IMG/VR virus record: IMGVR_UViG_3300045988_162215
DNA length: 64,000 nt
Source of the DNA: a virus
Reading direction: 5' to 3' (one strand)
Positions 5,469 through 33,608 of the stretch are shown here, piece after piece (the first letter of the stretch is position 1; each line of letters opens with the position of its first letter). Under the pieces are notes generated by a model. It had not been told where the DNA came from. It worked only from the letters and a program-made list of their open reading frames with translations, and searched no databases. The position numbers were made by a program, and so were the translations under genes.

Positions 5469-5570
5469 CTAATTTGTCGTTCTATTGTTATCCCAGTCCG
5501 CAAGCAGTAATGCAAGTGTGCTTGTGTCTTTGTTCTCGATAGCTTCCTCAATTCTTTCAATCAAACTCAT
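5469..5570 (-). CDS. hypothetical mini-protein (33 aa)
   Basis: SD aggaaacaagagaag + ATG; downstream of the 31-bp repeat. Confidence 0.3.
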   Translation of the reverse strand: MSLIERIEEAIENKDTSTLALLLADWDNNRTTN

Positions 5571-5592
5571 CTTCTCTTGTTTCCTTTCCTTG

Positions 5593-5623
5593 TGTTCCTT
5601 ACAAGTATTATAATACTACTTTA
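5593..5623. repeat. 31-bp perfect repeat, copy 2
   Basis: Identical to 4629..4659. Confidence 0.8.
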
Positions 5624-5716
5624 TTCAATGGATTGATACAATTTGCTTGCGTTTTTTATTAAATCCTTTACCTGTTTTAGGAAAGATATTTTTTTTATTT
5701 TTTTACACTTTTCCTC

Positions 5717-5746
5717 TTGACAAATTGGCTAGTAATGTGCTATAAT
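5717..5746 (+). promoter_or_regulatory. plus-strand sigma70 promoter D (extended -10 TGcTATAAT)
   Basis: cTTGACAaattggctagtaatgTGcTATAAT. Confidence 0.7.
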
Positions 5747-5752
5747 AGTTCG

Positions 5753-5815
5753 GACACCAGACCAAGTGTTCGATTCAGAACGAACAAAAAAAAGAAGGCT
5801 TTTCGCCTTCTTCCT
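5753..5815 (+). ncRNA. candidate small RNA D (~60 nt)
   Basis: Same 5' motif ccagaccaaguguucgau, hairpin guucg-auucaga-cgaac, then hairpin gaaggc-uuuuc-gccuuc. Confidence 0.45.
5789..5815 (-). terminator. intrinsic terminator (mainly minus strand) after ORF 5814..6005; possible 3' end of sRNA D
   Basis: Minus strand gaaggcgaaaagccttc followed by tttttttt. Confidence 0.5.
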
Positions 5816-6005
5816 ACATTGTAATCACATCATACCTTGTAACAATCTTCAGATGTCTGTCTGTGTTGATTGCCTGAAGTCTTGCAAGTTCCTTTTCAGC
5901 CTTTGCTCTCTCGATCGACTTTGTGTTATCATCAAAGTAATTTGTTCTTGTGAATACGAAATAGTTATCCTCGATTGTGAAATATGCAAGTGTTGTCTTA
6001 TTCAT
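5814..6005 (-). CDS. hypothetical early protein (63 aa)
   Basis: ORF track; variant of the conserved 5'UTR cassette; promoter 6060..6088. Confidence 0.55.
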   Translation of the reverse strand: MNKTTLAYFTIEDNYFVFTRTNYFDDNTKSIERAKAEKELARLQAINTDRHLKIVTRYDVITM

Positions 6006-6088
6006 AGTTATTTACCTTTAAGCCTTTTGTTTGGCTTTCCTTTCCTTATCTTTATACTTATTATAAGCCTTTTGTTGTTGTTTGTCAA
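6006..6088 (-). repeat. duplicated promoter + 5'UTR cassette (copy 3, diverged)
   Basis: As above. Confidence 0.5.
6060..6088 (-). promoter_or_regulatory. sigma70 consensus promoter
   Basis: Reverse complement TTGACAaacaacaacaaaaggctTATAAT. Confidence 0.7.
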
Positions 6089-6130
6089 GCTTTTTTTATA
6101 AATAAATTGTACTCTTTTAGTACTTTAACA

Positions 6131-6146
6131 CTTTAACGCACTAAAG
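6131..6146. repeat. palindromic motif CTTTAACGCACTAAAG (copy 2)
   Basis: As above. Confidence 0.7.
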
Positions 6147-6159
6147 CGTCAAGCACTAT

Positions 6160-6195
6160 TAAAGGCAAGGACTTGCGCCCTTGCCTTATTTTTAC
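6160..6195 (+). terminator. intrinsic terminator
   Basis: aaggcaagggacttgcgcccttgccttattttt (9-bp GC stem). Confidence 0.6.
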
Positions 6196-6197
6196 TT

Positions 6198-6434
6198 CTA
6201 CAAGTTGTTATTGATTGTCATTCTACCCAATCCACAAACGAAGTAGAAAAGTGAAGTTGTATCACCAGTAACTTCTGTCCAGCCATCCTCGCGAACTTCG
6301 ATTGACACATTGTGCTTTTCTGCAAAATACTCAAGTCCTGTAACCTGTGCCTCATCCTCTGTGTGGAAGAGAACCATGTCACTCATAACCTCAAACTCAA
6401 CGCCCTCAATATTCTGATACATTCTAAACTCCAT
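6198..6434 (-). CDS. hypothetical acidic early protein (78 aa)
   Basis: ORF track; conserved 5'UTR cassette; promoter 6485..6513. Confidence 0.55.
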   Translation of the reverse strand: MEFRMYQNIEGVEFEVMSDMVLFHTEDEAQVTGLEYFAEKHNVSIEVREDGWTEVTGDTTSLFYFVCGLGRMTINNNL

Positions 6435-6513
6435 AACTTTTTACCTTTAGCCTTTTGGCTTCCTTTCCTTTACCTTATGTACACATTATAAGCCTTTTTG
6501 GTTCATTTGTCAA
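6435..6513 (-). repeat. duplicated promoter + 5'UTR cassette (copy 4)
   Basis: As above. Confidence 0.6.
6485..6513 (-). promoter_or_regulatory. sigma70 consensus promoter
   Basis: Reverse complement TTGACAaatgaaccaaaaaggctTATAAT. Confidence 0.7.
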
Positions 6514-6568
6514 GTGTTTTTGTAAAAAAATTTTTATCATTTTCTTTACTTCTTTGCGCGCTTCAATG

Positions 6569-6584
6569 CTTTAACGCACTAAAG
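6569..6584. repeat. palindromic motif CTTTAACGCACTAAAG (copy 3)
   Basis: As above. Confidence 0.7.
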
Positions 6585-6625
6585 TGTTTGCCCCGCCTAA
6601 CCAGTGATTATGTAAAAATTAGTGC

Positions 6626-6654
6626 TTGACAAACTACGCATAGTATGGTATAAT
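6626..6654 (+). promoter_or_regulatory. plus-strand sigma70 promoter E
   Basis: cTTGACAaactacgcatagtatgGTATAAT. Confidence 0.7.
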
Positions 6655-6660
6655 GAATCT

Positions 6661-6790
6661 GAGATATAATGGGCGGGTGTATCTCGGGATGAGCCAGAGT
6701 GAGTTAGTCTAGCCTAACTTTCCTCGACAATTCCCTCTCCAAAAGTTATTTTGATTTCAAAAGACGGAATTTGTAAAAATCGTTGAGGTT
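6661..6790 (+). ncRNA. candidate non-coding transcript E, convergent with the Thg1-like gene
   Basis: Strong promoter; no ORF longer than 7 codons; local hairpins gagaua...uaucuc and guuag...cuaac. Confidence 0.4.
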
Positions 6791-6794
6791 AATA

Positions 6795-7679
6795 TTATTC
6801 CTCCTCAATAAAAATTAAATCTTCAATATACTTTCTACCTTCTCCTTTAAATATAGGAATTTCTTTATCTATAACCCAAGCTCTTTCTAATTTAGATGTA
6901 TCTCTAAGTCGTACTGTAGGTACAACTGTCTTTTTTCCACTAGGAAAAACAATTTGTTCTTTTTTTACAGTAATAACATTTTTTACACAACAAGAGCCTC
7001 TCTGACATTCTAAAGGAAGGCTATCCCAATCAATGCCTTTTTCTTTAAGCATTTCTTTTATATTCGCGCAAGACTTGCCTTGTAGCTCCTTATGGCTAAA
7101 GTTTGCTTGCCCAACTGCCTGAACTGAATTCCGCATAGCATCCAGCTGCCGCCAATAAATCAAATTAGCTACTTCTTCTTTTGGTATATTAAAACATCTT
7201 GCGTCAAACATTGCGCCTTTATCCATAGAACTACAATAAATTTTATATAAGTCAAATGGCATAGTACATTTTTTAGGAATATCATACCTATGAGCATAAT
7301 TATATGATACATTTTTTTCAAAAAATTTATTAAATGCTATTGTAGCCATACTTGCAGCAATACTACATACTTTCTGCACGTCATAATCAAACCACGCGGT
7401 GCTGGTTAAATTTTTATAATCCACTAATATAAGAGTAATTTCATCTGACTGAGTATATCCAAAAACACAACCTTGAATATTCTCACAAAGATACTGCATA
7501 GTTTCTTGCATTGACTTCATCAATATCTCATCAAAAGGTTTTTGAAACCCTTTTGTAAATGTATGAAAAGCGCGGCCGTCTATTCTAATGGCAACAGGAC
7601 ATCTGTGCATAAGGTGGATTTTAGGCGCGCTTTCATAAAAAGTTTTCATTCTAGTTCCTAAATCATCATGTACTGGCAT
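6795..7679 (-). CDS. Thg1-like protein (tRNA-His guanylyltransferase family 3'-5' nucleotidyltransferase)
   Basis: Translation carries hallmark Thg1 motifs: AIRIDGRAFHTF (cf. VVRLDGRNFHRF), QKPFD (cf. AKPND), GYTQSDEITLIL (catalytic SDE), YWRQLD (cf. SWRQAD). SD agagaggtacacatatATG. Confidence 0.75.
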   Translation of the reverse strand: MPVHDDLGTRMKTFYESAPKIHLMHRCPVAIRIDGRAFHTFTKGFQKPFDEILMKSMQETMQYLCENIQGCVFGYTQSDEITLILVDYKNLTSTAWFDYDVQKVCSIAASMATIAFNKFFEKNVSYNYAHRYDIPKKCTMPFDLYKIYCSSMDKGAMFDARCFNIPKEEVANLIYWRQLDAMRNSVQAVGQANFSHKELQGKSCANIKEMLKEKGIDWDSLPLECQRGSCCVKNVITVKKEQIVFPSGKKTVVPTVRLRDTSKLERAWVIDKEIPIFKGEGRKYIEDLIFIEEE

Positions 7680-7715
7680 ATATGTGTACCTCTCTTTCCT
7701 TACTTTTATATTCTT

Positions 7716-8087
7716 TTAACCAATTGTTAAAATTGCTGGATTTACAACACCATCGCCATCATAATTGTATTCCTTATTGTGCCACTTTCTAAGATATTCT
7801 CCATACTTCCAACACTGTGAAAGAATACTAACTGCACATCCATACATATATCCTGTAATGCCCTCAGTATCAGCTTCATGGCTTAACTTATCAGCATTAT
7901 CAACAATAACTTTCATAATATCTTCTGTAGAAGATTCAATCTTGTTCTCTAACATTTCTGCCCATCTTTCAGCATATGTAAAACAAGCTCTACCATAACC
8001 GTCACTATTCTTATTATACCAATCCTTGTATTCTTTTTCGTGTCCTTCTAAAATTTTCATGCGGCAATCGCGCTTGATGGCTGCCAC
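7716..8087 (-). CDS. hypothetical protein (123 aa); start uncertain (GTG 8087 or ATG 8060)
   Basis: ORF track; same operon, immediately upstream of the Thg1-like gene. Confidence 0.5.
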   Translation of the reverse strand: MAAIKRDCRMKILEGHEKEYKDWYNKNSDGYGRACFTYAERWAEMLENKIESSTEDIMKVIVDNADKLSHEADTEGITGYMYGCAVSILSQCWKYGEYLRKWHNKEYNYDGDGVVNPAILTIG

Positions 8088-8096
8088 TAAGACAGC

Positions 8097-8219
8097 CTAG
8101 CGCACTCCTTTCTTATCTTTTTTATAACCGAAATATTTTTCTCCACATCTATCTAAATCATGCCCTCCCCATATGGCTTGATGAATACCTTTCTTAATTA
8201 TTGTACTTGGTTTAGGCAT
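8097..8219 (-). CDS. hypothetical mini-protein (40 aa)
   Basis: ATG overlapping the end of ORF 8240..8524; weak SD. Confidence 0.25.
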   Translation of the reverse strand: MPKPSTIIKKGIHQAIWGGHDLDRCGEKYFGYKKDKKGVR

Positions 8220-8239
8220 GAAATTCTTTCTTAATCTCA

Positions 8240-8524
8240 TTAGAAGTCCTCCATTCTTGTCCATGTTATTAAAAGGTATTCTACATAAAAAGCTCTTTCA
8301 CATTTTTCAACCTCAAAACCTCGTTCTTCATACATCTTTACAATTTTATCTACAAAATTTGAATTAACAAAAGGTTCTGATAAAGATACTTCTATATAAC
8401 TTTTACCATGCGCGGCATTGTACTTTATTTCTTTGTCTATAATTTTAATATACTTCTTTTGCTGTCTAAGAAATTTCTTTTTAGTACGTTTTTGTATAAG
8501 TGCTATTTTGTTAATATCAACCAT
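8240..8524 (-). CDS. hypothetical basic protein (94 aa)
   Basis: ORF track; first gene of the minus operon leading to the Thg1-like gene. Confidence 0.5.
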   Translation of the reverse strand: MVDINKIALIQKRTKKKFLRQQKKYIKIIDKEIKYNAAHGKSYIEVSLSEPFVNSNFVDKIVKMYEERGFEVEKCERAFYVEYLLITWTRMEDF

Positions 8525-8554
8525 TTTTCTACCTCTATTCTATTTACTATAATT

Positions 8555-8584
8555 ATTATATCATAAAATTTTTAATAATTCCAA
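8555..8584 (-). promoter_or_regulatory. candidate promoter of the minus operon ending in the Thg1-like gene (TTGGAA-18-TATAAT), divergent from the late promoter
   Basis: Reverse complement TTGGAAttattaaaaattttatgaTATAAT. Confidence 0.35.
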
Positions 8585-8591
8585 TTAAATA

Positions 8592-8620
8592 TTGACAAGG
8601 CTAAAAAATTTTGGTATAAT
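8592..8620 (+). promoter_or_regulatory. sigma70 consensus promoter at the head of the structural (plus-strand) module
   Basis: TTGACAaggctaaaaaattttggTATAAT. Confidence 0.7.
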
Positions 8621-8648
8621 GTGATTAAGAACAGAAAGGAGAAGTGAC

Positions 8649-9734
8649 ATGGAGCAAAATTACATAAAAATGGACTTTTCGCTTGAATCATCACAAGAGC
8701 GAACAGAGCATGTCAAAAAAATAATAGCCAATACTCCTCCTGAAAGATTGAACTCAACATACTTAGAAAAATTAGCAGATTATATAATATTAGCAGCAAA
8801 TAAAGAAGATAGAAAACAAAATAAACAAGGTGAAAAAAGTTCATTATTAACAGATAATAGAATGAAAACAGTTAATGATAGAGAGACATCTTTTGAAGGA
8901 CTTATTGGAAAACTTGAAAATGGTGAAGATGGCATTTACAATATGATTGCCAACGATAAAAATATTATCTATAGACCTAAGTATGAAATTACTGAACAAG
9001 ATATCGCGGAAGTGCCCGGTTTGAGAGAGCTTCGCGAGAGTATAGAGCGGATAGAAAAGCAGGCTAGTACAGCCACCGGCAAGCGCGCGTATCTCTTAAA
9101 AAAGCAACTCATTGAAATGAGAAAAGACCAATATGTTTTAAAAGAAGTTTACCGCAGACCAATGTATAGCACAAATTTAGTTAAATCAATATCCCGGGTA
9201 GATTTGCATGAAAAAATTCAGATTGATCCAGATACAGGTGAGATTTATAGTGATGGTCTAATTACTTTAATCAATCCTTTTCATGTTTCTCTCTTGTTAT
9301 GTAATTATTCAAAAATAAAAGAAGAAACATATGAAAATTTTGGAAGTGATTTAAGATGGATGATGGTTGATTTAGATGATTTGGTAGAAAGAACTTTTAA
9401 AGAAAAATTTCCTTTATATTATAAATTAGTAATATATAAAATAGATGGTAAACAAAATGCGGAAATTCAAGATTTATTATATGAAGAATTTGAAATTAAA
9501 CATTCTGTTGAATATATCTCTTCTCTTTGGCGAAATAAAATCCCTAAAATGTTATCTGAACAAGCTAAAATGGATTGGCTTATTTGGCACTATACTGAAG
9601 AAGAAAAAGGATATTGGAAAAGATGTTCAAGATGCGGTCAAATTAAATTAGGTCACAGCTACTTTTTTGCAAAGAATAAGACAAGTAGAGATGGATGGTA
9701 TTCTATTTGTAAATCTTGTAGAAACAAAAAGTAA
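8649..9734 (+). CDS. hypothetical protein with C-terminal zinc ribbon (CxxC-x17-CxxC)
   Basis: SD aaaggagaagtgac + ATG; consensus promoter 8592..8620 upstream. Confidence 0.6.
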   Translation: MEQNYIKMDFSLESSQERTEHVKKIIANTPPERLNSTYLEKLADYIILAANKEDRKQNKQGEKSSLLTDNRMKTVNDRETSFEGLIGKLENGEDGIYNMIANDKNIIYRPKYEITEQDIAEVPGLRELRESIERIEKQASTATGKRAYLLKKQLIEMRKDQYVLKEVYRRPMYSTNLVKSISRVDLHEKIQIDPDTGEIYSDGLITLINPFHVSLLLCNYSKIKEETYENFGSDLRWMMVDLDDLVERTFKEKFPLYYKLVIYKIDGKQNAEIQDLLYEEFEIKHSVEYISSLWRNKIPKMLSEQAKMDWLIWHYTEEEKGYWKRCSRCGQIKLGHSYFFAKNKTSRDGWYSICKSCRNKK

Positions 9735-10958: not shown

Positions 10959-12694
10959 GTTTACAAAGTTTATTAGACCTCTCTGGCTCAAAAAATAAAA
11001 AAATAGGAATGTCAGAAGAACGAATCAATGAACATATTGATGAAATCAGATATACCATATCTTTTTATAGAAAGTACCCTGACCTCTTTGTAGATTTTAT
11101 AAAGGGGCCAGATAGCACTTTCCATTTCTATTTTTATCAGAGAGTTTTTATTAGAGTTGTAATGCGGCACCGCAAGGTGTATGCTACATTCCCTCGAGCT
11201 TATTCGAAGTCATTTCTTTCGATGATGGTTCTTATGCTTAGATGTATATTATATCCCGGTTCAGAATTGTTCGTTACTACGGGCGGAAAAGAGCAGGCTG
11301 CTAGTATCACAGTAGCTAAAATAGAGGAAATATGCAGACTGATTCCCGCGCTTAATAATGAAATTAACTGGGATAGAGGTGTTTCTACTAAGACCAAAGA
11401 TAACGTAAAATATATTTTTAAAAATGGATCCAAGATAGATATCCTTGCGGCAAGGGAAAGTTCTAGAGGTCAGCGTCGTACAGGCGGACTTATGGAGGAG
11501 TGTGTTCTTATTGATCAGACTGCACTTAATGAAATTATTATTCCTACTACAAATGTAGACAGGCGGCTTCCAGATGGTTCTCGTGTACCTGGAGAAGTTG
11601 TTAACAAGAGCCAGATTTATATTACAACTGCTGGATATAAAAATTCATTTGCTTATGATAAATTATGTGAGCTTTTAGTAGAATCAATTATTGAACCTGA
11701 TAAGACAATGATTATGGGCGGAACCTATGAGACTCCTGTTACAGAAGGACTTTTAAATGAAGATTTTGTAGAAGAATTAAAAATGTCAGGTACATTTAAC
11801 GAAGCATCATTTGAAAGAGAATATTGTTCTGTTTGGAGCGGTGATGCAGAAAATGCTTACTTTAGTGCGCAAATATTTGATAAACACAGAGAACTTAATC
11901 AACCAGAATACGAATGGAGTGGACGTAGTTCTAAATCAGCTTACTATGTATTAGGTATAGATGTTGGTCGTATAGGGTGTACAACTGAGGTTATGGTATT
12001 TAAGGTTACGCCGCAAATTCAAGGTTCAGCAATTAAGAGTTTAGTAAATATTTATACGTATGAAGCAGAACATTTTGAAACACAAGCTATTTATATTAAA
12101 AGATTATTTTATAGATATAAAGCTAGATGTTGCGCTATTGATGCAAATGGTCTTGGTGTTGGTCTTGTTGATTATATGGTTAAGAGTCAAATAGATCCAG
12201 AAACTGGTGAAACATTACCTCCTTTTGGTGTTGAAGGTGGAACATATGAAGAAGCTGGACAAGAGTATAAAAAATTTAGAACTGATGATATGGAACGTGA
12301 TGCTATGTATCTTATTAAGGCTAATGCTCCTGTTAATACAGAAGCTCATACTTATGCTCAAACACAATTAAGTAGTGGTAAAATAAAACTTTTAATTGAT
12401 GAACGTGAAGCTAAAATGAAGTTAATGGAGACTAAGATGGGTCAAAATATGTCAATAGATCAAAGAAATGAAAAGTTAAAACCTTTTGTTTTAACTTCTG
12501 TTTTAAGAGATCAAATGATGAATTTAGTTGAAGAAAATGAAGGCGTTAATACAATTCTTAAACAAAGTACAAAAACAATTAAAAAGGATAAATTCTCTGC
12601 TTTTGAATATGGTTTGTTATATATTAAAAAAGAAGAAGCAAAAAGAAAAAAACGTGGTTCTAGAAATTTTGCTAATATGATGTTTTATAGTTAG
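10955..12694 (+). CDS. terL: terminase large subunit
   Basis: Walker-A-like PRAYSKS and nuclease motifs GIDVG / IDANGLG in the translation; TTG start with SD gaggagg overlapping the upstream stop. Confidence 0.65.
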   Translation: MSLQSLLDLSGSKNKKIGMSEERINEHIDEIRYTISFYRKYPDLFVDFIKGPDSTFHFYFYQRVFIRVVMRHRKVYATFPRAYSKSFLSMMVLMLRCILYPGSELFVTTGGKEQAASITVAKIEEICRLIPALNNEINWDRGVSTKTKDNVKYIFKNGSKIDILAARESSRGQRRTGGLMEECVLIDQTALNEIIIPTTNVDRRLPDGSRVPGEVVNKSQIYITTAGYKNSFAYDKLCELLVESIIEPDKTMIMGGTYETPVTEGLLNEDFVEELKMSGTFNEASFEREYCSVWSGDAENAYFSAQIFDKHRELNQPEYEWSGRSSKSAYYVLGIDVGRIGCTTEVMVFKVTPQIQGSAIKSLVNIYTYEAEHFETQAIYIKRLFYRYKARCCAIDANGLGVGLVDYMVKSQIDPETGETLPPFGVEGGTYEEAGQEYKKFRTDDMERDAMYLIKANAPVNTEAHTYAQTQLSSGKIKLLIDEREAKMKLMETKMGQNMSIDQRNEKLKPFVLTSVLRDQMMNLVEENEGVNTILKQSTKTIKKDKFSAFEYGLLYIKKEEAKRKKRGSRNFANMMFYS

Positions 12695-19494: not shown

Positions 19495-20363
19495 ACTATT
19501 TAGGTGGCAAATCCGCAGATTGTCGCTTAAATAAAAGTAAATTAAAATCTATGCTTTCTTCTCAGCAAAATTCATATCAAGCTGAATGGATAACATTAAA
19601 TAATAATAAAAAATGGCGTTGTTTAATAAATCCAGATAAGCTGAAAGAAGATTATGATCAAAAAGAAATTTCTATTGAATTTGAAGCTGGATTGCAAGAG
19701 GGCGATACTTTTTATTGGGATAGAACTAAAACATATTGGATTACATATTTACAAGATTATGCAGAAGAAGCCTATTTTAGAGCAGCAATTAGAAGATGTA
19801 ATTATTCAATAGATATAAATAAAAACAAGTATTGGGTTTATTTGCGGGGCCCGGTTGAGACTTCCTTAATCTGGAGACAGAAACACTCAATCGAAAGTAA
19901 CGACTTAAATTATACTTTAATTGTTTATATTACTAAAAACGAAGAAACAGAAGCGTTTTTTAAAAGATTTCAAATTGTAAAATTTGATAATCATAATTGG
20001 AAAGTCGCCGCAGTTGATAGATATAGTCAAAGAGGCATCATTGAAGTCTATTTAGATGAATACTTTGATAATGTTGATGAAGACAATATGATCATTCCTG
20101 AGATTCAAGAATTTGGACGAAGAGATCCTCATATCGACGGCCCGCAAATTGTAGAAGTTTTTGGAGAAGAAATTGAATATTCTATAAAAAATGCTAGTAA
20201 TGGTAAATTTGTAGTTAATTCTAATAAGGTTAAAATTGTAAAATCAGACGAAAATACGTTAGTATTAAATATATTAACAGGAAAAGCTGATTCTTTTATA
20301 ATTTCTTATATTAGAGAGGGAGAAGAAGATATTACATTAAAAGTAAATATTGATTCTTTCTAG
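19461..20363 (+). CDS. hypothetical structural protein (300 aa)
   Basis: SD gaggtga + ATG. Confidence 0.4.
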   Translation: MSGFDRMSTRINYLGGKSADCRLNKSKLKSMLSSQQNSYQAEWITLNNNKKWRCLINPDKLKEDYDQKEISIEFEAGLQEGDTFYWDRTKTYWITYLQDYAEEAYFRAAIRRCNYSIDINKNKYWVYLRGPVETSLIWRQKHSIESNDLNYTLIVYITKNEETEAFFKRFQIVKFDNHNWKVAAVDRYSQRGIIEVYLDEYFDNVDEDNMIIPEIQEFGRRDPHIDGPQIVEVFGEEIEYSIKNASNGKFVVNSNKVKIVKSDENTLVLNILTGKADSFIISYIREGEEDITLKVNIDSF

Positions 20364-24992: not shown

Positions 24993-27900
24993 ATGGCTAA
25001 CACAATAGATTTTAAACTGCGGACAATAGCAGATTTAAAAGGTGTTAATGAATTAAAACGACAATTACAAGATATAAATAGAGAACTTCAAGGAACTTTT
25101 CCTATTGAGGTCGACTATGATGTAGAAAGTGCATTACAGTCTACAAGAGCATTACAACAAGCTTTAGAACAGGCATATGACCCAAAGTTTAATACTTTAA
25201 GTTTTGAAAAATTTAATAAATCATTAAATTCAAACCATACAAATTTACAAAAAGTTATTTTAGATTTAGGAAGTATGGGATCTCAAGGCCAAGCTGCAAT
25301 TGGACGTCTAGCAGCTTCTTTTGGTCAAATGGGAATTACAATTAAAAAAACAAATAAAGTTTTAAATGAGATGGCTCAAACAATGAAGAATACTGTAACA
25401 TGGGGTATTTCTTCAGGTATTTGGAATCAAATGCTTAATAGCACTCAGCAGGCTTATGGCTATATTAAAAATCTTGATACTGCTTTAAATGATATTAGAA
25501 TTGTAACTGGGCAATCAGCTGATCAAATGAGAGATTTCTCAAAAGATGCGAATGAAGCTGCAAAAGCACTTGCTGTTTCAACAAAAGATTACACTGAAGG
25601 AGCTTTAATTTACTATCAACAGGGTCTTGATGATGATACGGTTAAAGCTTTAACCGATATTACTGCAAAGACAGCTAATGTAACAGGTCAATCTATGGCG
25701 GAAGTGTCTGAGCAACTCACAGCGGTATGGAATGGTTATAATGTAGCAAACGAAGCCGCAGAAAAGGGCTTTGGTATATACGAAGAATATGTAGATAAGT
25801 TAGCAGCAGTAGGTGCGGCAACTGCATCAGATCTGGAAGAGCTGGCTACAGCTATGTCTAAAGTAGCGTCATCCGCATCCATGATGGGTGTTAATATTGA
25901 TCAGTTATCTGCTCAAGTTGCTACTATTGTTTCTGTAACAAAACAAGCACCAGAATCTGTTGGTACTGCTCTTAAAACAATTTATGCTCGTATGGGCGAC
26001 TTACAGGTTGATGGTGTTGATGAATTTGGCACTACTCTTGGTGAAGTATCTGGTACTCTTGAGTCTGTTGGTATTAGAGTTCTGGATGAAGCAGGTAACT
26101 TAAGAGAAATGGGTACTGTAATGGAAGAGGTTGCTGAGAAATGGCAAGGATGGACGGAAGCTCAGCGTCAAGCTATTGCAGTAGCTATGGCAGGTAAGAG
26201 ACAGTATAATAATTTAACTGCATTATTTAATAACTGGAGTATGTATGAAAACACTTTAGCTGTATCTAAGAATGCTGCTGGTACATTACAAGAACAGCAA
26301 GATACTGCTATGGAATCTTTAAATAAAAAGCTTGAAGTATTAAGAGCATCATCTGAAGAAATTTATCAAGATTTATTTGATGCTGATTCTATTGGTAATC
26401 TAGTAGAAATTTTTACTAAACTAGTACAAGCAATAGATAAAGTAGTTAAATCTTTTAATGGGTTAAAAGGCATTTTACCTTTAATTGGTTCGCTTGGTTT
26501 TAAAGTTTTTAATACTCAAATTGCTCAAGGATTAACTAATATGAGAAATCGTATTGTTGAATCAAAACAGTCTATTTCTGATATGGAAAATCAATTAAAA
26601 GCATTAGAGCAGATTAGCAATAATGCTAAGAGCATAAAAGATAATGGTGGAGATGCAGCTTCTTCAGCTATTGTTGAAAATGCAACCGAAGAAATAAAAA
26701 ATAATTATGCCGAAATTTATCAATATCAAAAGATGATGTCTTCTGAAGAAATAGAGCTTTTTAATTCTATTCAAAAAGAACGAGGCGCTTTGGTTGATGT
26801 AGAATTGCAGAGACAAGAAAGCTTAAATACAGTAGATAAGATAAAAAATAAATATGATGGTATATTTAATACAATATTAGATAGCACAGGTAAAAATGCA
26901 GAAGGATCTCTTGGATTAATTAGAGCAGAAGATCTTTCTAATATAGCTAATTATCAAAAAGAATTAGAACTTTTAAAAGAAGGATTAGAAATTGATATTA
27001 AAGACAAATTTGTTATTGATGATTCTTTTATTGATAGGCAATCTAGAAATTTAGCTCAAAAATTTAAAAATTCTTTTTCAAATAGTATTGATGATGGAGA
27101 GATAAATAATATAATTCAAAGAGCTATAAATACAGGAGATTTTGAAGAATTAAGTTATGTGATGGTAGGGCCTATTGATAACTTAAAGAAAAAAATTGAA
27201 GAATTAAGAAATAGTAATGGTAGTAGTTTTGATGATATATTTGGTAATATTGCTAAGAATGGACAAGAAGGATCTATAGCATTAGAATTAATAAAGAAAA
27301 AGCTTGCAGATACTGCAAATACAGGTAAAACAGTTGATCAAATTTTTGAAGAAGTTATTCAAGATTTAAGAGAAATGAAAACTAATGGTGACCAAGTAAA
27401 TGGAGCAACAAATCAAATTAATGGTTCTGTTAGTAGGCTTAGTCAAGCAATGAAGAAGTTAAAAAATGATAATGCTTTTAAGCAACTAGCTTCTGATGCA
27501 GCAAAATTAGCTCAAGGATTGTCAAGTGGAGCTTCTGGTATTATGATGCTTGCTAGTATTCCAAAGACTCTTGATAATGATAATTTATCTACAATGGAAA
27601 AAACTCTTCAAATAGTTATTTCTTTATCATCTGCTTTACCAATGCTTGTAACAGGACTTAAAAATGTTATTACTGGATTTAGTGCTTTGCCAGCATTATT
27701 ATCTAAAATAGGAAGTGCACTTGGTGCATTATTAGCTAGTCCTACTGGGGCAATAATAGCGGCAATTACTGTTGCAGTGGTTGCTCTTGGTGCAGCTATT
27801 TATACAACCATAAAGAAAACTCAATCTGCAGAAGAAGAATTAAAAGCATTAAAAGATGCTGCTAACGATGCAACTGAAAAAGCTGATAAATTAAAAAATG

Positions 27901-30900
27901 CTTTTATTGAATTAAATGATTCATTAACAGAATGGCAAGATAAAGTTGATTCATTAAAAGATTTAAGCAAATCAACAGAAGAATATACTAGAACAGTCCA
28001 AGAAGCAAATGAACAATTATTAAATTTAGTAGATACAAATGAAGAATTAGCTCAATATGTAACAAGAAATTCTGAAGGCTTGCTTGTATTAAAAGAAGGC
28101 TATGAAGATGTTCTTAATAAAATGAGTGAGTCTGCAAGTATGACAAATGCAACAGCTCAAAACTTAAAAATGCAAGCTAATCAAGCTACGCTTGATAAAC
28201 AAAAAGAAGATCTTATAGGTAATATAGAATTAAGTTATTTTAATAATGCTTATAATACAGAAGATCAAGTTAGTACACCAGATTATGAAGCAGCAGTAAA
28301 TACTCTTATTAGTAGTTATGAAAAAAATGGAAATTTAATTGGTAAAGATATTGATGAATTATCACGAGGAAATAAATCTTTAAAAGAAGCTTTAACAGAG
28401 AATAAACAAGAAATTATTGATTTAGCTAAAAGTATTGATGAAAATACAAAAGTTAATAAACTTTTATTAGATGAAGATGTTCGTTCTTTACTTGAACAAG
28501 ATAAAACATATGCTGATGCAAATGAGCAAGAAAAAACTATGATGGCTCAATCTGCAAAAAACATAGATATCTTTTCTAGTGATTATAGTGGATTTAAAGA
28601 AGAAGCAACTTTTGGTTATTATAAAGGTGGCGTTGGTGGTTATAGAGATAACAAAACGCATGATGCTTATAAAGAAGCTTTAGCAGCTCAGTGGGGTATT
28701 GATGCAAGTCAAATAGATGTAAAAGATAAAGTAGGTAAAGCGATTTATACAAATACCTTAACAGGAGAAACTGAAACAAAAACAGATAAGGAAGCAGCCG
28801 CTTTAGCAGTTGCATTTAATCAAGAGCTCCAGAAACAAGAAGCGTTAGAATCTGATAAGGACTTTGCAGTAAGTAAACAAGCAATTCTTGATTTTAGTGC
28901 AGAAGCTCAGAAACAGCTTGGTGGAGAAGAATCTTCGGCTTATAGTGCTTTTATGGAAATTGCATCAAAATCAATGGAAACACAAGGAAGAGGCTTTGAT
29001 GCATCCGATATTGATTTGTCAATGATTGACTATAGCGGATTCCAAAAAATAAATGAATTATTAGATAATGGCGAATTAGTTAGCTATTTAGATAAAATGG
29101 GCTTGTCCATTGAAGATTTTAATAATGCTCTAGCTGGTCTTACTATGGAGGCTCTTGAGCAACAAACAAAGTTAAGCTTTAAAGCAACATCTGATAAAAC
29201 TACTTCATTAAAAGATAATATTATATCTGGTGATGTTACATCTGAAAACATTAAAGAAAATGAAGATTATCAAGCTATAGCTGCTCAAATGGATAATATT
29301 ATAGCTCTTTATCCTGAAATGACAAGACAAGCAGAAATCTTTAATAATGAGAATCTTGTTGGAACCCAAGAGTATTTAGATGCATTAACTCAACTTCAGG
29401 ATAAAATGAATGAAGGTGTTCTTGAAGCATTACGTCAAGAAGCTAAAAAAGCAGGCGATGATTTTGAAAAGCTAGTTGCAGATAAAGATTTTGAAGTTAA
29501 AATGGGAGCAAACCCAGAAGAATTTGAATCTGCAATGGATAAAATTTTAGATGCTGATTATTCTGTTAATGTGGAAATTCATGCTCAAGCAGAAGAAGCT
29601 TTTGAAGATTTAGAGCAAGGTATTGAAGATATTCAAAATGCAACTGGCATGATTGGAGAAGGTTTTGTCGTAGCAGCTGATGATATAAGAGAGTTAAATA
29701 ATGCTTTTCCAGGTATTCTTCAAAATTGTGAATATTTACAAGATGGAACAATTAAGTTAAGCCAAGAATCTGTAAATGCTGCACAAGAAGCTGTTGCAAC
29801 CGAAGTTGCTACAGATACAGAAGGTACTATTGCAAAATTAAAAAATCAAGCAACTGAATTAAGGGGTAAACAAGCAACTTACCAAGGTATGGCAGATGCC
29901 GCAAGAAAGTTAGCTACAATGGAGATGGCTTCTGATGAGCAAAAAGCTCAATATAAAAAAGTTATCGAAAATGGAATAGCTGAAATTAGCGCACAATCAG
30001 ATACTAGCCAAACAGATGGGGCTAAAGCTGTTGCAGATAATTCTATTGACAACTCTAGAGCTGTAGCTATGAACTGGGGAAGTGCCTATTCAGATGCAGC
30101 TAATGCAGCAGTTCAATTTGCTCAAACTGCAATAGATGCTCAAGTTGCAGCAACAACTCCTGGTAGCAAAGGAGTAACAAACAAAGTTAAAGTAAATTAC
30201 TCTGGAGGCCAAAGTGGTGTTTCTACCTCTATCCAAGCAAACAAATTAAATGCAGATTTTGCAAGTGCTTCTACTGCGCAACAATATAATGCTTTAGCAG
30301 AGCAATATCAAGAAGCTGCTGATTCTTTAGGTGCGCAAGCTAATGATATTGAAGGTATGATAGTTGCTGCAGGAGCTTTGGGTGCAACAGGTATTAATAG
30401 TGCAAAAGATGCTGGGAAAAGTAAATCTAGCGGCAGTGGCGGTGGAGGTAGCTCTAAAGACCAAAAAGAGTTTACTGATGATACTGTAGATAGATATTGG
30501 TCTGTAAACAAAGCACTTGATGCTATCAATGATGAACTTGATAAACTTGAAGATAAGCAAAGCACAATGTCCGGAAAACAACTTATTGAAAGTTTACAAG
30601 AAGAAAATAAATTATTAGACCAGCAGATTGAAAAACAAAAGGAAAAACAGAAGCTTCAAATTCAAGAAGCAGAACAGATACAAGGTAGACTTAAATCTTT
30701 TGGGGTTACGTTTAAAGATACTGGTGAAATTACTAACTATGAAGCAGCATATCAAGCTCAAATAAATGCTTATAATGCAGCTGTTAGTGCATATAATTCA
30801 GGTGCTTTAGATGAAGCTGGTATGAGTATAGCAGAACAAAAGTACGAAGATTTTAAAGCTCAAATTGAAAGATATGATACTTTATTATATGATGAAATGA

Positions 30901-33608
30901 AAGATGTCGCTGACGCGATTTCAGAAGAAGAAAAAAAACAAAGAGAAAATACTTTAGCTATATTTGAAGAAGATTATAAAATTAAACTTGATTTTTCTGA
31001 AGCTGAAAGAGATATGCAAGATTTTTTAGCGGAAATGGAAGAAGATTTCACTAAGGTATATGAAGATCTTGGTAAAAAGAGCAAAAACATAGTAGCTTCA
31101 TTTAGCACATATCAAGGTGATAATGGTACAATTGCCGCGGATCTGGCTGCTATAGGAGTAGTTGAGAGAGAAATTATGAATCTACATACTATAGGTTATT
31201 CTGGTATGTTTGAAACAATTTCTCAGGCTCAAGACAGACTTAAAGAACTTCAAAGCGATTTGATGGATCATGCTAAAGACATGAAAGATTTGTTCCAAGA
31301 TGCTTGGGATGCTTATATGGATGGCATTGATCAAGCCGCAGATAAGTTTGAAAACTTAATGGATGAATTTGATAGAATAAATAATAATCTTGAATATCAA
31401 GCTGAACTTATAGAGTTAATCTATGGAGAAGAAGCATATGATATGATGGATAAATTATATTCTGCTCAAATTAGTAATAGTGGCGTACAGATTGAGTCTT
31501 TAAGGCAACAGAAGGCGTTCTGGGCAGAACAAGCGGAAGCCGCGAAACAATCTTATGGAGAAGAAAGTGAAGCTTATCAAGAAGCATATGAAAAGATGCG
31601 TGATTGCGAACAAGACTTAAATGACGCAGTACTTGATAGAATAAATCTTATTAAAGACCAATATCAAAATGCTGTTTCTTCTACTATTGATGCTCTTGAG
31701 AAACAAATGACCGGTGGATCCGCACTTGACTATATGCAAGATCAATGGGACAGATTAAAAGAATCCGCAGACTTGTATATGGATGCAACAGAAAAAGCTT
31801 ATAATACAGAAACTTTCAAAGCTAATGTAGATCAAGCTATTACAGATACTAAGAGTGTAAAAACTAAACAGAAATTATTAGAGTTCCAAGAAAAGGAGCT
31901 TAAAGCTTTAAGAGAAAAGAAACAATTAACTCAATACGATATTGATGCAGCAAATGCTAGATTTGATATTCTTCAAAAAGAAATTGCTTTAGAAGATGCT
32001 CAAAATAGTAAGAATACAATGAAAGTTACTAGAAATCAAGAAGGTAACTGGACTTATCAATATGTTGCAGATGAAGACGACGTTGCTAGTAAACGTCAAG
32101 CTTTATTAGATTCTTATAAAGAACTTTATGAGTTATCTAAGACAGCATACCAATCTAATATTGAAAACTTATTAAAATTAGATCAAGAATATTTATCTAA
32201 GAAGAAAGAGTATCTTGAAAAATATGGCGCGGACAGCCAAGAGATGGCGGATCTAGATAAGTGGTATCAAGAGGTATCGATAGGATATGCCAATGAGGCG
32301 GCGACCGCGAAGTCTGGATTGCAAGAAGCTCAATTAGGTTTGACTCTTGAGATTTACAAACAAGATGAAGAAGCTTATGCGTCTATGACATCAGAGCAAC
32401 AGAGATTAGTTAAAGAAGCTACAGATAATAATATTAGTGATTTTAATAGTGTATATGATGCTGTTAGAGATAATATGAATGGTATTGTAGATAGTATTGA
32501 ATCTTCTCTTGTTGAAGGAAGAGGTATCTGGGATATAGCTGCAGATCAAATGATTGATAAATGGGCTGGCGATAATGGTTCTAGTGTGAAAGCTATGGTT
32601 ACAGATGCAAATGATAAGTTAATTGAAGCAACTCAAAAATATGAAGAGCAAGTTTCAGATACAGCTGATAAAGCTGGACAAGATTTTGGACCAGATGGTA
32701 TATCAGGTGCTATTAGAGGGGCAGAAGATGAGACAGATAATTTGAAGAATAAGACTGCTGAACTTGCTTCAGATAGTAGTTCTCAATTAGAGAATTTAAG
32801 AAATAGTGTTGATCAAGTTAAAACTGCTTGGGAAGGCGTTGTTCAATCTATTCAAGATGCTATTAACAATATTCAACAATATTTATCTCTAATGCAGGCT
32901 GCAGCAACCGCGAGTCAAACTACTTTTAATGGTTCAACAAATTATGGGAATTATAACGCTACTAATAGCGATTCTGGTAGAAATAATGGTGGTGGTTCAC
33001 CTAGTGGAACTGGACCTATCGGAAAACGTTATAAATTAATATCTGTATCAGTGGCTCCAAATGGTACTCCTAGAATGGGAATTCCTCAACTTGGCGTATC
33101 AATGGAAATTCCTTCTAATTTAAGAAAAAAGAATATAGCTGGTAAAGATAGAGATCTTTTTATTGAAGCTTTCATTAAAAAATATCCTAAATACCAGGGT
33201 CAAGTTTATAAGACTGGTGGTTACACAGGAAACTGGCCTATATCTCAAGGAGATGGTCTGGATAGTGATAATGGTAGACTTGGTATTTTACATCAAAAAG
33301 AACTTGTATTAAATGCTTCTGATACAGAAAATATTTTAGATGCAGTAAAAATTGTTAGAAATATGCCAAATATTATTTCTTCAATTCAAAATGCTATTTC
33401 TGATGTAGTTGGAGAAAGACTTTCTAATATGACTAATGAAATTAGTCAAGGAAAAGCTATTTCAACAACAACAGGTAGCAACAAAGAAGAAAATAATGTT
33501 TATAACATTGTTGCAGAGTTCCCTAATGCTAACAATGCAGCAGAAATTGAACAGGCTTTACTCAATCTTAAAAATATTGCAGCACAAAAGAACGGAATTA
33601 GAAAATAA
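24993..33608 (+). CDS. tail tape measure protein (TMP; 2871 aa)
   Basis: Giant coiled-coil-rich ORF; N-terminal TMP-family region (...QAIAVAMAGKRQYNNLTALFNNW...); C-terminal Gly-rich and hydrophobic segments; SD aaaaggagg. Confidence 0.85.
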   Translation: MANTIDFKLRTIADLKGVNELKRQLQDINRELQGTFPIEVDYDVESALQSTRALQQALEQAYDPKFNTLSFEKFNKSLNSNHTNLQKVILDLGSMGSQGQAAIGRLAASFGQMGITIKKTNKVLNEMAQTMKNTVTWGISSGIWNQMLNSTQQAYGYIKNLDTALNDIRIVTGQSADQMRDFSKDANEAAKALAVSTKDYTEGALIYYQQGLDDDTVKALTDITAKTANVTGQSMAEVSEQLTAVWNGYNVANEAAEKGFGIYEEYVDKLAAVGAATASDLEELATAMSKVASSASMMGVNIDQLSAQVATIVSVTKQAPESVGTALKTIYARMGDLQVDGVDEFGTTLGEVSGTLESVGIRVLDEAGNLREMGTVMEEVAEKWQGWTEAQRQAIAVAMAGKRQYNNLTALFNNWSMYENTLAVSKNAAGTLQEQQDTAMESLNKKLEVLRASSEEIYQDLFDADSIGNLVEIFTKLVQAIDKVVKSFNGLKGILPLIGSLGFKVFNTQIAQGLTNMRNRIVESKQSISDMENQLKALEQISNNAKSIKDNGGDAASSAIVENATEEIKNNYAEIYQYQKMMSSEEIELFNSIQKERGALVDVELQRQESLNTVDKIKNKYDGIFNTILDSTGKNAEGSLGLIRAEDLSNIANYQKELELLKEGLEIDIKDKFVIDDSFIDRQSRNLAQKFKNSFSNSIDDGEINNIIQRAINTGDFEELSYVMVGPIDNLKKKIEELRNSNGSSFDDIFGNIAKNGQEGSIALELIKKKLADTANTGKTVDQIFEEVIQDLREMKTNGDQVNGATNQINGSVSRLSQAMKKLKNDNAFKQLASDAAKLAQGLSSGASGIMMLASIPKTLDNDNLSTMEKTLQIVISLSSALPMLVTGLKNVITGFSALPALLSKIGSALGALLASPTGAIIAAITVAVVALGAAIYTTIKKTQSAEEELKALKDAANDATEKADKLKNAFIELNDSLTEWQDKVDSLKDLSKSTEEYTRTVQEANEQLLNLVDTNEELAQYVTRNSEGLLVLKEGYEDVLNKMSESASMTNATAQNLKMQANQATLDKQKEDLIGNIELSYFNNAYNTEDQVSTPDYEAAVNTLISSYEKNGNLIGKDIDELSRGNKSLKEALTENKQEIIDLAKSIDENTKVNKLLLDEDVRSLLEQDKTYADANEQEKTMMAQSAKNIDIFSSDYSGFKEEATFGYYKGGVGGYRDNKTHDAYKEALAAQWGIDASQIDVKDKVGKAIYTNTLTGETETKTDKEAAALAVAFNQELQKQEALESDKDFAVSKQAILDFSAEAQKQLGGEESSAYSAFMEIASKSMETQGRGFDASDIDLSMIDYSGFQKINELLDNGELVSYLDKMGLSIEDFNNALAGLTMEALEQQTKLSFKATSDKTTSLKDNIISGDVTSENIKENEDYQAIAAQMDNIIALYPEMTRQAEIFNNENLVGTQEYLDALTQLQDKMNEGVLEALRQEAKKAGDDFEKLVADKDFEVKMGANPEEFESAMDKILDADYSVNVEIHAQAEEAFEDLEQGIEDIQNATGMIGEGFVVAADDIRELNNAFPGILQNCEYLQDGTIKLSQESVNAAQEAVATEVATDTEGTIAKLKNQATELRGKQATYQGMADAARKLATMEMASDEQKAQYKKVIENGIAEISAQSDTSQTDGAKAVADNSIDNSRAVAMNWGSAYSDAANAAVQFAQTAIDAQVAATTPGSKGVTNKVKVNYSGGQSGVSTSIQANKLNADFASASTAQQYNALAEQYQEAADSLGAQANDIEGMIVAAGALGATGINSAKDAGKSKSSGSGGGGSSKDQKEFTDDTVDRYWSVNKALDAINDELDKLEDKQSTMSGKQLIESLQEENKLLDQQIEKQKEKQKLQIQEAEQIQGRLKSFGVTFKDTGEITNYEAAYQAQINAYNAAVSAYNSGALDEAGMSIAEQKYEDFKAQIERYDTLLYDEMKDVADAISEEEKKQRENTLAIFEEDYKIKLDFSEAERDMQDFLAEMEEDFTKVYEDLGKKSKNIVASFSTYQGDNGTIAADLAAIGVVEREIMNLHTIGYSGMFETISQAQDRLKELQSDLMDHAKDMKDLFQDAWDAYMDGIDQAADKFENLMDEFDRINNNLEYQAELIELIYGEEAYDMMDKLYSAQISNSGVQIESLRQQKAFWAEQAEAAKQSYGEESEAYQEAYEKMRDCEQDLNDAVLDRINLIKDQYQNAVSSTIDALEKQMTGGSALDYMQDQWDRLKESADLYMDATEKAYNTETFKANVDQAITDTKSVKTKQKLLEFQEKELKALREKKQLTQYDIDAANARFDILQKEIALEDAQNSKNTMKVTRNQEGNWTYQYVADEDDVASKRQALLDSYKELYELSKTAYQSNIENLLKLDQEYLSKKKEYLEKYGADSQEMADLDKWYQEVSIGYANEAATAKSGLQEAQLGLTLEIYKQDEEAYASMTSEQQRLVKEATDNNISDFNSVYDAVRDNMNGIVDSIESSLVEGRGIWDIAADQMIDKWAGDNGSSVKAMVTDANDKLIEATQKYEEQVSDTADKAGQDFGPDGISGAIRGAEDETDNLKNKTAELASDSSSQLENLRNSVDQVKTAWEGVVQSIQDAINNIQQYLSLMQAAATASQTTFNGSTNYGNYNATNSDSGRNNGGGSPSGTGPIGKRYKLISVSVAPNGTPRMGIPQLGVSMEIPSNLRKKNIAGKDRDLFIEAFIKKYPKYQGQVYKTGGYTGNWPISQGDGLDSDNGRLGILHQKELVLNASDTENILDAVKIVRNMPNIISSIQNAISDVVGERLSNMTNEISQGKAISTTTGSNKEENNVYNIVAEFPNANNAAEIEQALLNLKNIAAQKNGIRK

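Follow-up and report, generated by a model that had tools for sequence, protein, structure and literature searches.

The 64,000-nucleotide stretch of viral DNA analysed here (IMG/VR record IMGVR_UViG_3300045988_162215; hereafter, the window) carries on its minus strand, at 6795..7679, a gene coding for a Thg1-like protein (TLP), which is the gene studied in this work. That the product belongs to the Thg1/TLP family is practically certain, and its motifs mark it as a putative template-dependent TLP of the repair type, not as a Thg1 enzyme adding nucleotide G-1. By analogy with characterised homologs, the phage protein is probably active in templated nucleotide addition in the 3′-5′ direction. 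The best explanation for the gene, towards which the evidence tilts slightly, is the templated repair of the 5′ ends of tRNA or tRNA-like RNA during infection, and the biological role proposed on that basis is held with about even confidence. The family, the intact active site, the TLP-type signature, the purifying selection and the gene order were computed here.

The family had been proposed from the DNA letters without database searches, and this assignment was borne out by matches in Pfam, PHROG and the Protein Data Bank (PDB), and by an intact catalytic site. The Pfam profile of Thg1 (PF04446) was matched along positions 3–130 of 130 with 103.4 bits (cutoff 29.2; E = 1.2e-29); a second profile named in the original prediction, PF14413, gave no match at E ≤ 0.1. 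The PHROG family phrog_4717, labelled 'tRNA-His guanylyltransferase', was matched with E = 2.7e-82. The best sequence match in PDB, nearly full length, was the TLP of Bacillus thuringiensis (BtTLP, 4kgk; E = 3.8e-53), below which the archaeal TLP 5AXK and human, yeast and Candida Thg1 structures were also matched. In NCBIfam, no match was obtained for five proteins tested, including all four proteins of the TLP operon. The motifs quoted in the original prediction were located at R32-IDGRAFHTF-41, K47-PFD-50, S78-D79-E80 and W176-RQLD-180.

The roles of individual residues were mapped via the PDB alignments, being taken from the structure papers of BtTLP and of the Methanosarcina acetivorans TLP (MaTLP), and from a 2025 preprint. 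The phage TLP has all the residues to which a catalytic role has been assigned, the full set being E16, R32, D34, K47, S78, D79, E80, K103, R161, R177, D180 and N184 (grouped by role in Table 1). The alignment kept the acidic residues D34, D79 and E80, the loss of which would have spoken against the family; their counterparts are D29/D76/E77 in human hTHG1 and D30/D75/E76 in BtTLP. The triad R177/D180/N184 has the same 3- and 4-residue spacing as in DdiThg1 and falls within a predicted helix (residues 167–189); in DdiThg1, the helix with R147/D150/N154 presents these residues toward the incoming nucleoside triphosphate. Residue conservation was considered in a set of 46 distinct homologs drawn from related loci, which carry labels of the style L001. 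Invariant in 46/46 relatives were S78, D79, E80, K103, D159, R161, R177, Q178, D180 and N184, with D34 conserved in 45 and R32 in 44 of them, and with position 47 occupied by K in 37, R in 6 and V in 3. Within the clade of the window, the ratio of nonsynonymous to synonymous substitution rates (dN/dS) was 0.17–0.50, and below 1 in every pair, which indicates that the TLP gene evolves under purifying selection.

Concerning the type of enzyme, true Thg1 proteins bear a signature, needed for non-templated G-1 addition, that consists of a KPND loop (in KPXD, X is always N) and the motif HINNLYN after WRQxDC, while repair-type TLPs have KPXD with a variable, often aromatic X and lack HINNLYN. The phage protein reads K47-P48-F49-D50, i.e. 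a KPFD loop with an aromatic X, and has W176-RQLD-A-MRNSVQ in the place of the second motif. On the grounds of this loop and of the missing HINNLYN, it can be classified as a TLP, expected to add Watson-Crick-templated nucleotides only. Eukaryotic Thg1 (human 3OTB, yeast, Candida) shares with it the superfamily, the two-metal site and the activation and transfer residues, and differs from it in the KPND and HINNLYN elements used for the non-templated addition of G-1 opposite A73; as these are missing, true tRNA-His guanylyltransferase activity would not be expected of the phage TLP. So, 'tRNA-His guanylyltransferase' is to be read as a family name, and as a function for these phage proteins it is probably wrong.

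Structure modelling also recovered the Thg1/TLP fold. A first AlphaFold model, built with 26 close homologs, reached a predicted local distance difference test score (pLDDT) of 48 and was discarded, and a second one, built with 81 sequences, reached a pLDDT of 61 and a predicted template modelling score (pTM) of 0.62, adequate for fold assignment only. When the latter was compared by Foldseek with PDB, all the 32 matches at E ≤ 0.001 were Thg1/TLP chains, the top one being chain 4kgm_B of BtTLP (E = 1.8e-14, TM-scores 0.50/0.63), and BtTLP and MaTLP were the only proteins matched in fold. BtTLP (4KGK/4KGM) is thus the closest known system both in sequence and in structure. Besides the metal ligands, its residues R28/R131/E12 correspond to R32/R161/E16 of the phage TLP, and it has a KPFD-type loop; by this likeness, templated 5′-end repair of truncated tRNAs would be expected of the phage enzyme. 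The differences are that BtTLP is chromosomal and the window TLP is phage-borne, that the base-stacking M158 of BtTLP is A188 in the phage protein, and that the latter is longer at two insertions (Table 1). Insert 1, which in the model is predicted to form an extended helix plus one extra helix, is 22–44 amino acids long in all gut-phage relatives versus 6–8 in the TLPs of Bacillus and Staphylococcus phages. Insert 2 ranges from 1 to 28 amino acids among relatives, with the maximum in the clade of the window, and its region (residues 233–275) is modelled as short strands with pLDDT below 50. It maps onto the flexible β-hairpin (S213, R215) by which MaTLP contacts the tRNA elbow. MaTLP (5AXK–5AXN, tRNA complex) has in common with the phage TLP the fold and the metal ligands, and serves as the model of how acceptor stem and elbow are recognised independently of the anticodon and of how the length of the acceptor stem is measured; it is only ~25–28% identical, and the hairpin region is much longer in the phage TLP, where the model is of low confidence. 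It seems reasonable to interpret that the recognition of the tRNA elbow may differ from that of MaTLP. Another observation on insert 1 is that one relative 80% identical to the window TLP (L057, 10001..10869) switches reading frame near codon 122, inside this insert, and its C-terminal half is only 55% identical, for which a frameshift, recombination or an error of assembly could be responsible.

The genomic context of the family was studied by comparing 46 TLP-centred viral loci with 46 control loci centred on DNA polymerase. Homologs of repair genes were found in 16/46 TLP-centred loci versus 0/46 controls, and tRNA genes within 10 kb in 12/46 versus 0/46, figures to be read with the bias of the control in mind, as the queries were taken from the TLP set, the loci are not independent of each other phylogenetically, and a replication module does not make a neutral comparator. 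The only neighbours recurring across lineages in the 46 TLP loci were a nucleotidyltransferase (phrog_388), a calcineurin-type phosphoesterase (Metallophos), cREC_REC (PF20274), which is a cyclic-phosphate-processing REC protein, and an RNA ligase; no conserved partner other than RNA-repair genes recurs. These four repair genes lie at no more than ~6 kb from TLP in three rearranged gene orders, the loci with the repair cluster being L021, L023, L026, L027, L058, L041, L046 and L050–L052. Counting also the polynucleotide kinase (PNK), RNA-repair genes are found at up to 10 kb from TLP in about seven related lineages. In SPbeta-like relatives (TLP ~67% identical), either a Pnkp–RNA ligase fusion or a separate kinase and ligase lie ~9–10 kb upstream, in the same gene block. 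Ribose-phosphate pyrophosphokinase (Prs) and nicotinamide phosphoribosyltransferase (Nampt) flank TLP in Bacillus phage FADO (L013, 2409..4776) and in L028 (7366..8133 and 11176..12597), and Prs is near TLP in L050–L052. These NAD+-salvage neighbours, which occur in phages unrelated to each other, may be a second link to counter-defence against NAD+ depletion, or the plain outcome of a shared accessory region.

All the characterised bacterial and archaeal TLPs prefer, in vitro, the repair of 5′-truncated tRNAs. This activity, together with its fit with the linkage to repair genes, makes templated repair the best supported explanation. In the mechanism that can be proposed by homology, the phage TLP would either activate a 5′-monophosphate RNA end with ATP or GTP or take a 5′-triphosphate end directly, and would then add nucleotides in the 3′-5′ direction, with the opposite (3′) strand of the acceptor stem as the Watson-Crick template. 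In this manner, one or more missing 5′ nucleotides would be restored to a tRNA, or to a tRNA-like RNA provided with acceptor stem and elbow. Expression would occur early in infection, from a sigma-70-like promoter that serves four genes, TLP being the last, and the effect would be to keep the tRNA pool usable for phage translation, i.e. an RNA-repair or counter-damage function. That pool might include host tRNAs or the tRNA-Trp and tRNA-like RNA of the phage itself. The gene itself is part of an accessory region, and directly upstream of it an anti-defence cassette, coding for a homolog of Tad4, has been inserted. Enzymatic activity, substrate, timing and benefit to the phage are what we infer in this scheme. 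The idea of tRNA 5′-end repair, possibly as counter-defence, which was already in the original prediction, is plausible, with family-level support from the linkage seen in relatives. On the other hand, the maturation of tRNA-like RNAs, which had been offered as another example, did not hold in the form of mitochondrial-type 5′ editing of mismatched phage tRNAs, which was rejected since none of 39 distinct neighbouring phage tRNAs has a mismatch in its 7-bp acceptor stem.

Several points weigh against 5′-end repair, in addition to the bias of the control mentioned above. The sequence visible for this phage and its clade (the window, the locus L008, which belongs to the same contig, and the equivalent flanks of close relatives) amounts to ~77 of 143 kb, and it contains no RNA ligase, PNK, nucleotidyltransferase, phosphoesterase or cREC. 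With no repair partner there, TLP looks uncoupled from the repair module in this clade. Of this sequence, the 10 kb contributed by the polymerase-centred loci of close relatives contained neither repair genes nor tRNAs. Concerning the damage to be repaired, the anti-phage tRNases found in the literature have their cleavage sites in the anticodon loop or stem, the D-loop, the T-loop, the CCA tail or the 3′ side of the acceptor stem, and none of them removes 5′ nucleotides; as no 5′-trimming tRNase was found, such damage is hypothetical. The structure model is of moderate quality. Finally, a 2019 review of the field, in which phages do not appear, regards the biological substrates of bacterial TLPs as an unsettled matter.

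Other explanations were considered. The usual annotation implies the maintenance of tRNA-His, whereby G-1 would be restored or added, with Watson-Crick templating, opposite C73 of a host or phage tRNA-His so as to secure histidylation, and bacterial TLPs do add templated G-1 opposite C73 in vitro. Two relatives with TLPs 58–59% identical to that of the window, L024 and L029, carry a phage tRNA-His 4–7 kb upstream of TLP, and this gene abuts a tRNA-Pro, which may entail an unusual processing of the tRNA-His 5′ end. The two tRNA-His(GTG) genes, at L024 5572..5645 and L029 2908..2981, lie 0–2 nucleotides from tRNA-Pro; their 7-bp acceptor stem is perfect, with A73 and with U encoded at -1, unlike the bacterial G-1:C73 arrangement. 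A templated TLP would not convert A73 with U-1 to G-1. Moreover, bacterial tRNA-His normally gains G-1 co-transcriptionally, which would make the role redundant; characterised TLPs favour truncated tRNAs over full-length tRNA-His; and the visible sequence of the phage contains no tRNA-His. Given the missing Thg1 determinants KPND and HINNLYN, a tRNA-His-specific role is unlikely, and the explanation as a whole is given a low probability. The dedicated 5′-end completion or proofreading of the RNAs of the phage itself (a tRNA-Trp, a 137-nucleotide tRNA-like RNA and a minihelix at 3282..3330, described below) is assigned a rather low probability as well. All three are encoded in the same leftward early block as TLP, the excess of tRNA genes in TLP-centred loci agrees with it, and anticodon-less RNAs could be substrates of an enzyme that, like MaTLP, reads acceptor stem and elbow and not the anticodon. 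Against this stand the perfect acceptor stems of the neighbouring tRNAs, which reveal no encoded need for 5′ editing, the many TLP phages without tRNA within 10 kb, and the minihelix itself, the fold of which is not significant and which starts past the predicted transcription start, so that it would not be born 5′-truncated.

Two further possibilities do away with tRNA or with function. In one, which we regard as improbable, TLP would play a role in the phage-host conflict by extending or capping the 5′ ends of phage transcripts or by acting on nucleotide-derived molecules. The Tad4 cassette directly upstream and the Prs and Nampt neighbours would fit such a role, some TLPs act on non-tRNA RNAs, and the palm domain is related to that of nucleotide cyclases of the GGDEF and Cas10 (CRISPR polymerase) types. 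However, cyclase structures match the model at E > 0.1 only, all the residues specific to the two-step reaction on RNA 5′ ends are conserved, and the adjacency of Tad4 was found in 1 of the 60 loci screened for neighbour genes, that of the window's own genome, the slot being variable or empty in close relatives. In the other, TLP would be an accessory gene undergoing drift that currently serves little or no function, having been split from its RNA-repair partners, as could be thought from the absence of such partners in the visible sequence, the frame change and divergent C-terminal half of L057, and a dN/dS of up to 0.5 on the branch of the window. Nevertheless, the open reading frame is intact with all its catalytic residues, dN/dS does not reach 1 in any pair, and both the position and the sequence of TLP are kept in six relatives (78–83% amino-acid identity) around which flanking cassettes turn over, so drift is very improbable.

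Coming back to 5′-end repair, it could be extended, as a speculation to which we give little credit, in the sense that TLP left the repair cluster in the gut-phage clade and became a stand-alone early counter-defence, which would rebuild the 5′ ends of tRNAs, or of the phage tRNA-Trp and tRNA-like RNAs, after a host nuclease has cut the acceptor stem on its 5′ strand. The inserts would then tune the choice of substrate, and the Tad4 slot would mark an anti-defence island. No host immune nuclease that clips this strand was found in the literature. A known system of similar logic is healing and sealing of the T4 Pnkp/Rnl1 type, which also repairs damaged tRNA during infection and whose Pnkp and ligase have homologs linked to TLP in the related SPbeta-like elements. 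It differs in that it mends anticodon-loop breaks by end-healing and ligation, whereas TLP polymerises missing 5′ nucleotides from a template, and in that neither ligase nor kinase was found in the visible part of the window phage.

Table 1. Features of the TLP gene, its product and the surrounding region. Nucleotide positions are those of the window; residue numbers are those of the phage TLP
Feature	Position	Strand	Description
TLP gene	6795..7679	-	ATG start, TAA stop, 294 codons/294 amino acids; family matches and motifs
Metal-binding carboxylates	D34, D79, plus E80		Aligned with those of 4kgk and 3otb
5′-Activation residues	K47, S78, N184		Correspond to ScThg1 K44, S75, N161
Nucleotidyl-transfer residues	R32, K103, R161		Correspond to ScThg1 R27, K96, R133
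Salt-bridge residue	E16
Helix triad	R177, D180, N184		Corresponds to DdiThg1 R147/D150/N154
Insert 1	residues 122–155		Clade-specific; 26 amino acids longer than BtTLP, between palm helix and FDAR strand
Insert 2	residues 235–262		Variable; 22 amino acids longer than BtTLP
Predicted sigma-70-like promoter	8555..8584	-	TTGGAA, 18 nucleotides, TG-extended TATAAT; consensus match only
Gene 1	8240..8524	-	94 amino acids; weak match to phrog_8208 (E = 1.3e-4)
Gene 2	8097..8240	-	47 amino acids; start overlaps stop of gene 1 (TAATG)
Conserved leader/junction	8061..8096	-	3′ of gene 2 (…GTGGCAGCCATCAAGCGCGATTGCCGC); cassette insertion point
Tad4 homolog (PF25186, Type I Thoeris inhibitor)	7716..8060	-	114 amino acids from ATG 8060
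Spacer	7680..7715	-	36 nucleotides; TLP ribosome-binding site AGAGAGGT, 8 nucleotides before ATG
Weak terminator-like element	6775..6808	-	Overlaps TLP stop; UUGAGG, 14-nucleotide loop, CCUCAA, then CGAUUUUU
Consensus promoter ('transcript E')	6626..6654	+	12/12 with TG; faces TLP 3′ end
Minihelix (acceptor/T-arm), candidate tRNA-like RNA	3282..3330	-	GGGATA…AAGAG-TTCGATT-CTCTT-c-TATCCC-A

The position of TLP at the end of a putative early operon, as originally proposed, agrees with the present results: four genes of one strand, of which TLP comes last, follow a predicted sigma-70-like promoter, with the TAATG overlap, the 36-nucleotide spacer and no internal terminator. The promoter is located within a 124-bp divergent intergenic region, in common with a plus-strand promoter of a sigma-factor-like gene. 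This divergent gene (8649..9734, plus strand) codes for a protein of 361 amino acids that matches the PHROG 'sigma factor' family with E = 2.4e-46, and whose C-terminal ~45 amino acids also match zinc-ribbon/HNH-type families. At the other end of the unit, the terminator-like element falls outside the criteria of the terminator scanner, and the gene 3′ of TLP has a consensus promoter of its own. The three small proteins encoded upstream of TLP had been considered unknown. For gene 1 the proposed coordinates were correct, and for gene 2 a shorter span (8097..8219) had been given; its earlier start is supported by the gene calls on an identical contig, and its full-length matches in relatives are 94–100% identical. 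Gene 1 is kept upstream of TLP in all close relatives and, among the screened loci, the 94- and 47-amino-acid genes are confined to the clade.

The third small protein turned out to be neither unknown nor encoded by 7716..8087. It matches the Pfam family Tad4 (PF25186) along positions 1–111 of 113 with 126.3 bits (cutoff 25; E = 9e-37), and shares ~61% identity with proteins from phages of the Bacillus cereus group. A mechanical open reading frame and a public gene call use GTG 8087 as the start, and ATG 8060 is most likely the real one. Proteins of the Tad4 family act on ThsB, inserting a loop into its NAD+-processing TIR active site, which is thereby blocked; a sequence search gave no homolog of solved structure. 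For annotation purposes, this neighbour of TLP is to be labelled as a Tad4 (anti-Thoeris) homolog. The conserved leader that precedes Tad4 in the window abuts the start codon of TLP in L009, so that Tad4 is a cassette inserted exactly before TLP. The same slot is empty in L009 and occupied by an unrelated 84-amino-acid gene in L001, L015 and L016, and a second variable cassette occurs 3′ of TLP in L001; neither the 84-amino-acid cassette nor the other small early proteins belong to a Pfam family. To judge by gene order, TLP is a stable gene between two hot-swap slots. Tad4 was rejected as a fixed partner of TLP on the count of screened loci given above, and the two genes are more likely to be neighbours through the traffic of cassettes in this accessory region than as a functional pair.

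Concerning the noncoding elements that had been noticed near TLP, a putative minihelix and the putative promoter behind 'transcript E' are indeed present as sequence elements. The promoter is unchanged in four relatives, and the RNA predicted from it has a fold that is not significant (z = -0.9) and no Rfam match; a structured noncoding RNA 3′ of the TLP gene was rejected as the folds were not significant. The minihelix, with the consensus T-loop TTCGATT, begins 7–8 nucleotides past the predicted start site of a perfect consensus promoter, and its fold is not significant either (z = -0.65). Its T-arm core AGAGTTCGATTCTCT is also found in the insert-bearing tRNA-like gene of L008. This gene (L008 19602..19738) is followed by a normal tRNA-Trp(CCA) (19748..19820), both on the same strand as TLP, ~2.0–2.2 kb beyond window position 1 and ~9 kb downstream of TLP. 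It is 137 nucleotides long, scores 47 bits in Rfam, is not detected by ARAGORN, and has in place of the anticodon arm a structured insert of 78 nucleotides (fold z = -3.0). The tRNA-Trp is kept in five relatives. Within the window, a tRNA scan and an Rfam search gave no tRNAs and no families at gathering thresholds, and sub-threshold Rfam matches (mir-7445, snoR25 and others) were judged spurious. A spurious mir-7445 match drew attention to a hairpin palindrome at 2125..2171, with a 16-bp stem (14 Watson-Crick and 2 G·U pairs; AAAGTTATCCACAATT…AATTGTGGATAACTTT). The early block (window 1..8600, both strands) is made of very small genes with 200–500-bp gaps and many perfect 12/12 consensus promoters, for instance at 5717..5746 (+), 6060..6088 (-), 6485..6513 (-), 6626..6654 (+) and 8592..8620 (+), two of the perfect promoters of the block being oriented against gene direction. 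Promoter-bearing repeats of ~60–100 bp recur over the early block and in relatives.

The window is 100% identical across 17,679 nucleotides to the metagenomic contig ENA ERZ28595307 scaffold_82 (143,383 bp). Terminase, portal and Yon/Yor-type proteins mark its source as an SPbeta-like large siphovirus of a low-GC Firmicute. No near-identical cultured phage was matched in a megablast search with window 6000..9000, and in genome collections the nearest copies were in metagenome-assembled genomes of Bacilli, Lachnospiraceae and Acutalibacteraceae. The DNA polymerase open reading frame extends past the window edge. In the structural block, two giant open reading frames are adjacent on the plus strand (24993..33608 and 33617..40885; 2871 and 2422 amino acids).

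Phage copies of TLP are not unusual, contrary to the original prediction, and the search for homologs in related phages, which it had suggested, found many. A homolog is encoded in 162 of 50,697 GenBank phage records from more than 29 host genera, most of them already annotated, including phages of Bacillus, Prevotella (Lak), Caulobacter, Mycobacterium, Erwinia and Vibrio. Besides the existence of a PHROG family, a 2010 analysis included the Thg1 of phage 201phi2-1, and a 2021 review places Thg1 with the RNA-repair enzymes of phages and makes the same prediction of 5′ restoration. No experimental work on any phage TLP was found in the literature. The window TLP shares the family and the predicted RNA-repair role with the phrog_4717 genes of Pseudomonas phage 201phi2-1, Bacillus phages Bcp1 and FADO, Fusobacterium phage FNU3 and jumbo phages. 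It differs from the known copies in being at most 54% identical to any GenBank phage record, in belonging to an uncultured gut clade with insert 1, and in its location in a short early operon beside Tad4 and not in a repair cluster. It is therefore a divergent addition to an already recognised phage gene family, the gene itself being ordinary.

The substrates of bacterial-type TLPs have been debated without the phage copies. The clade is very abundant in gut metagenomes, the protein database containing at least 8000 homologs at E ≤ 1e-20. As the linkage to RNA-repair genes and tRNA clusters is recurrent, a TLP-minus phage could give a tractable phenotype in vivo, and this phenotype might point to a defence that damages the 5′ ends of tRNAs.

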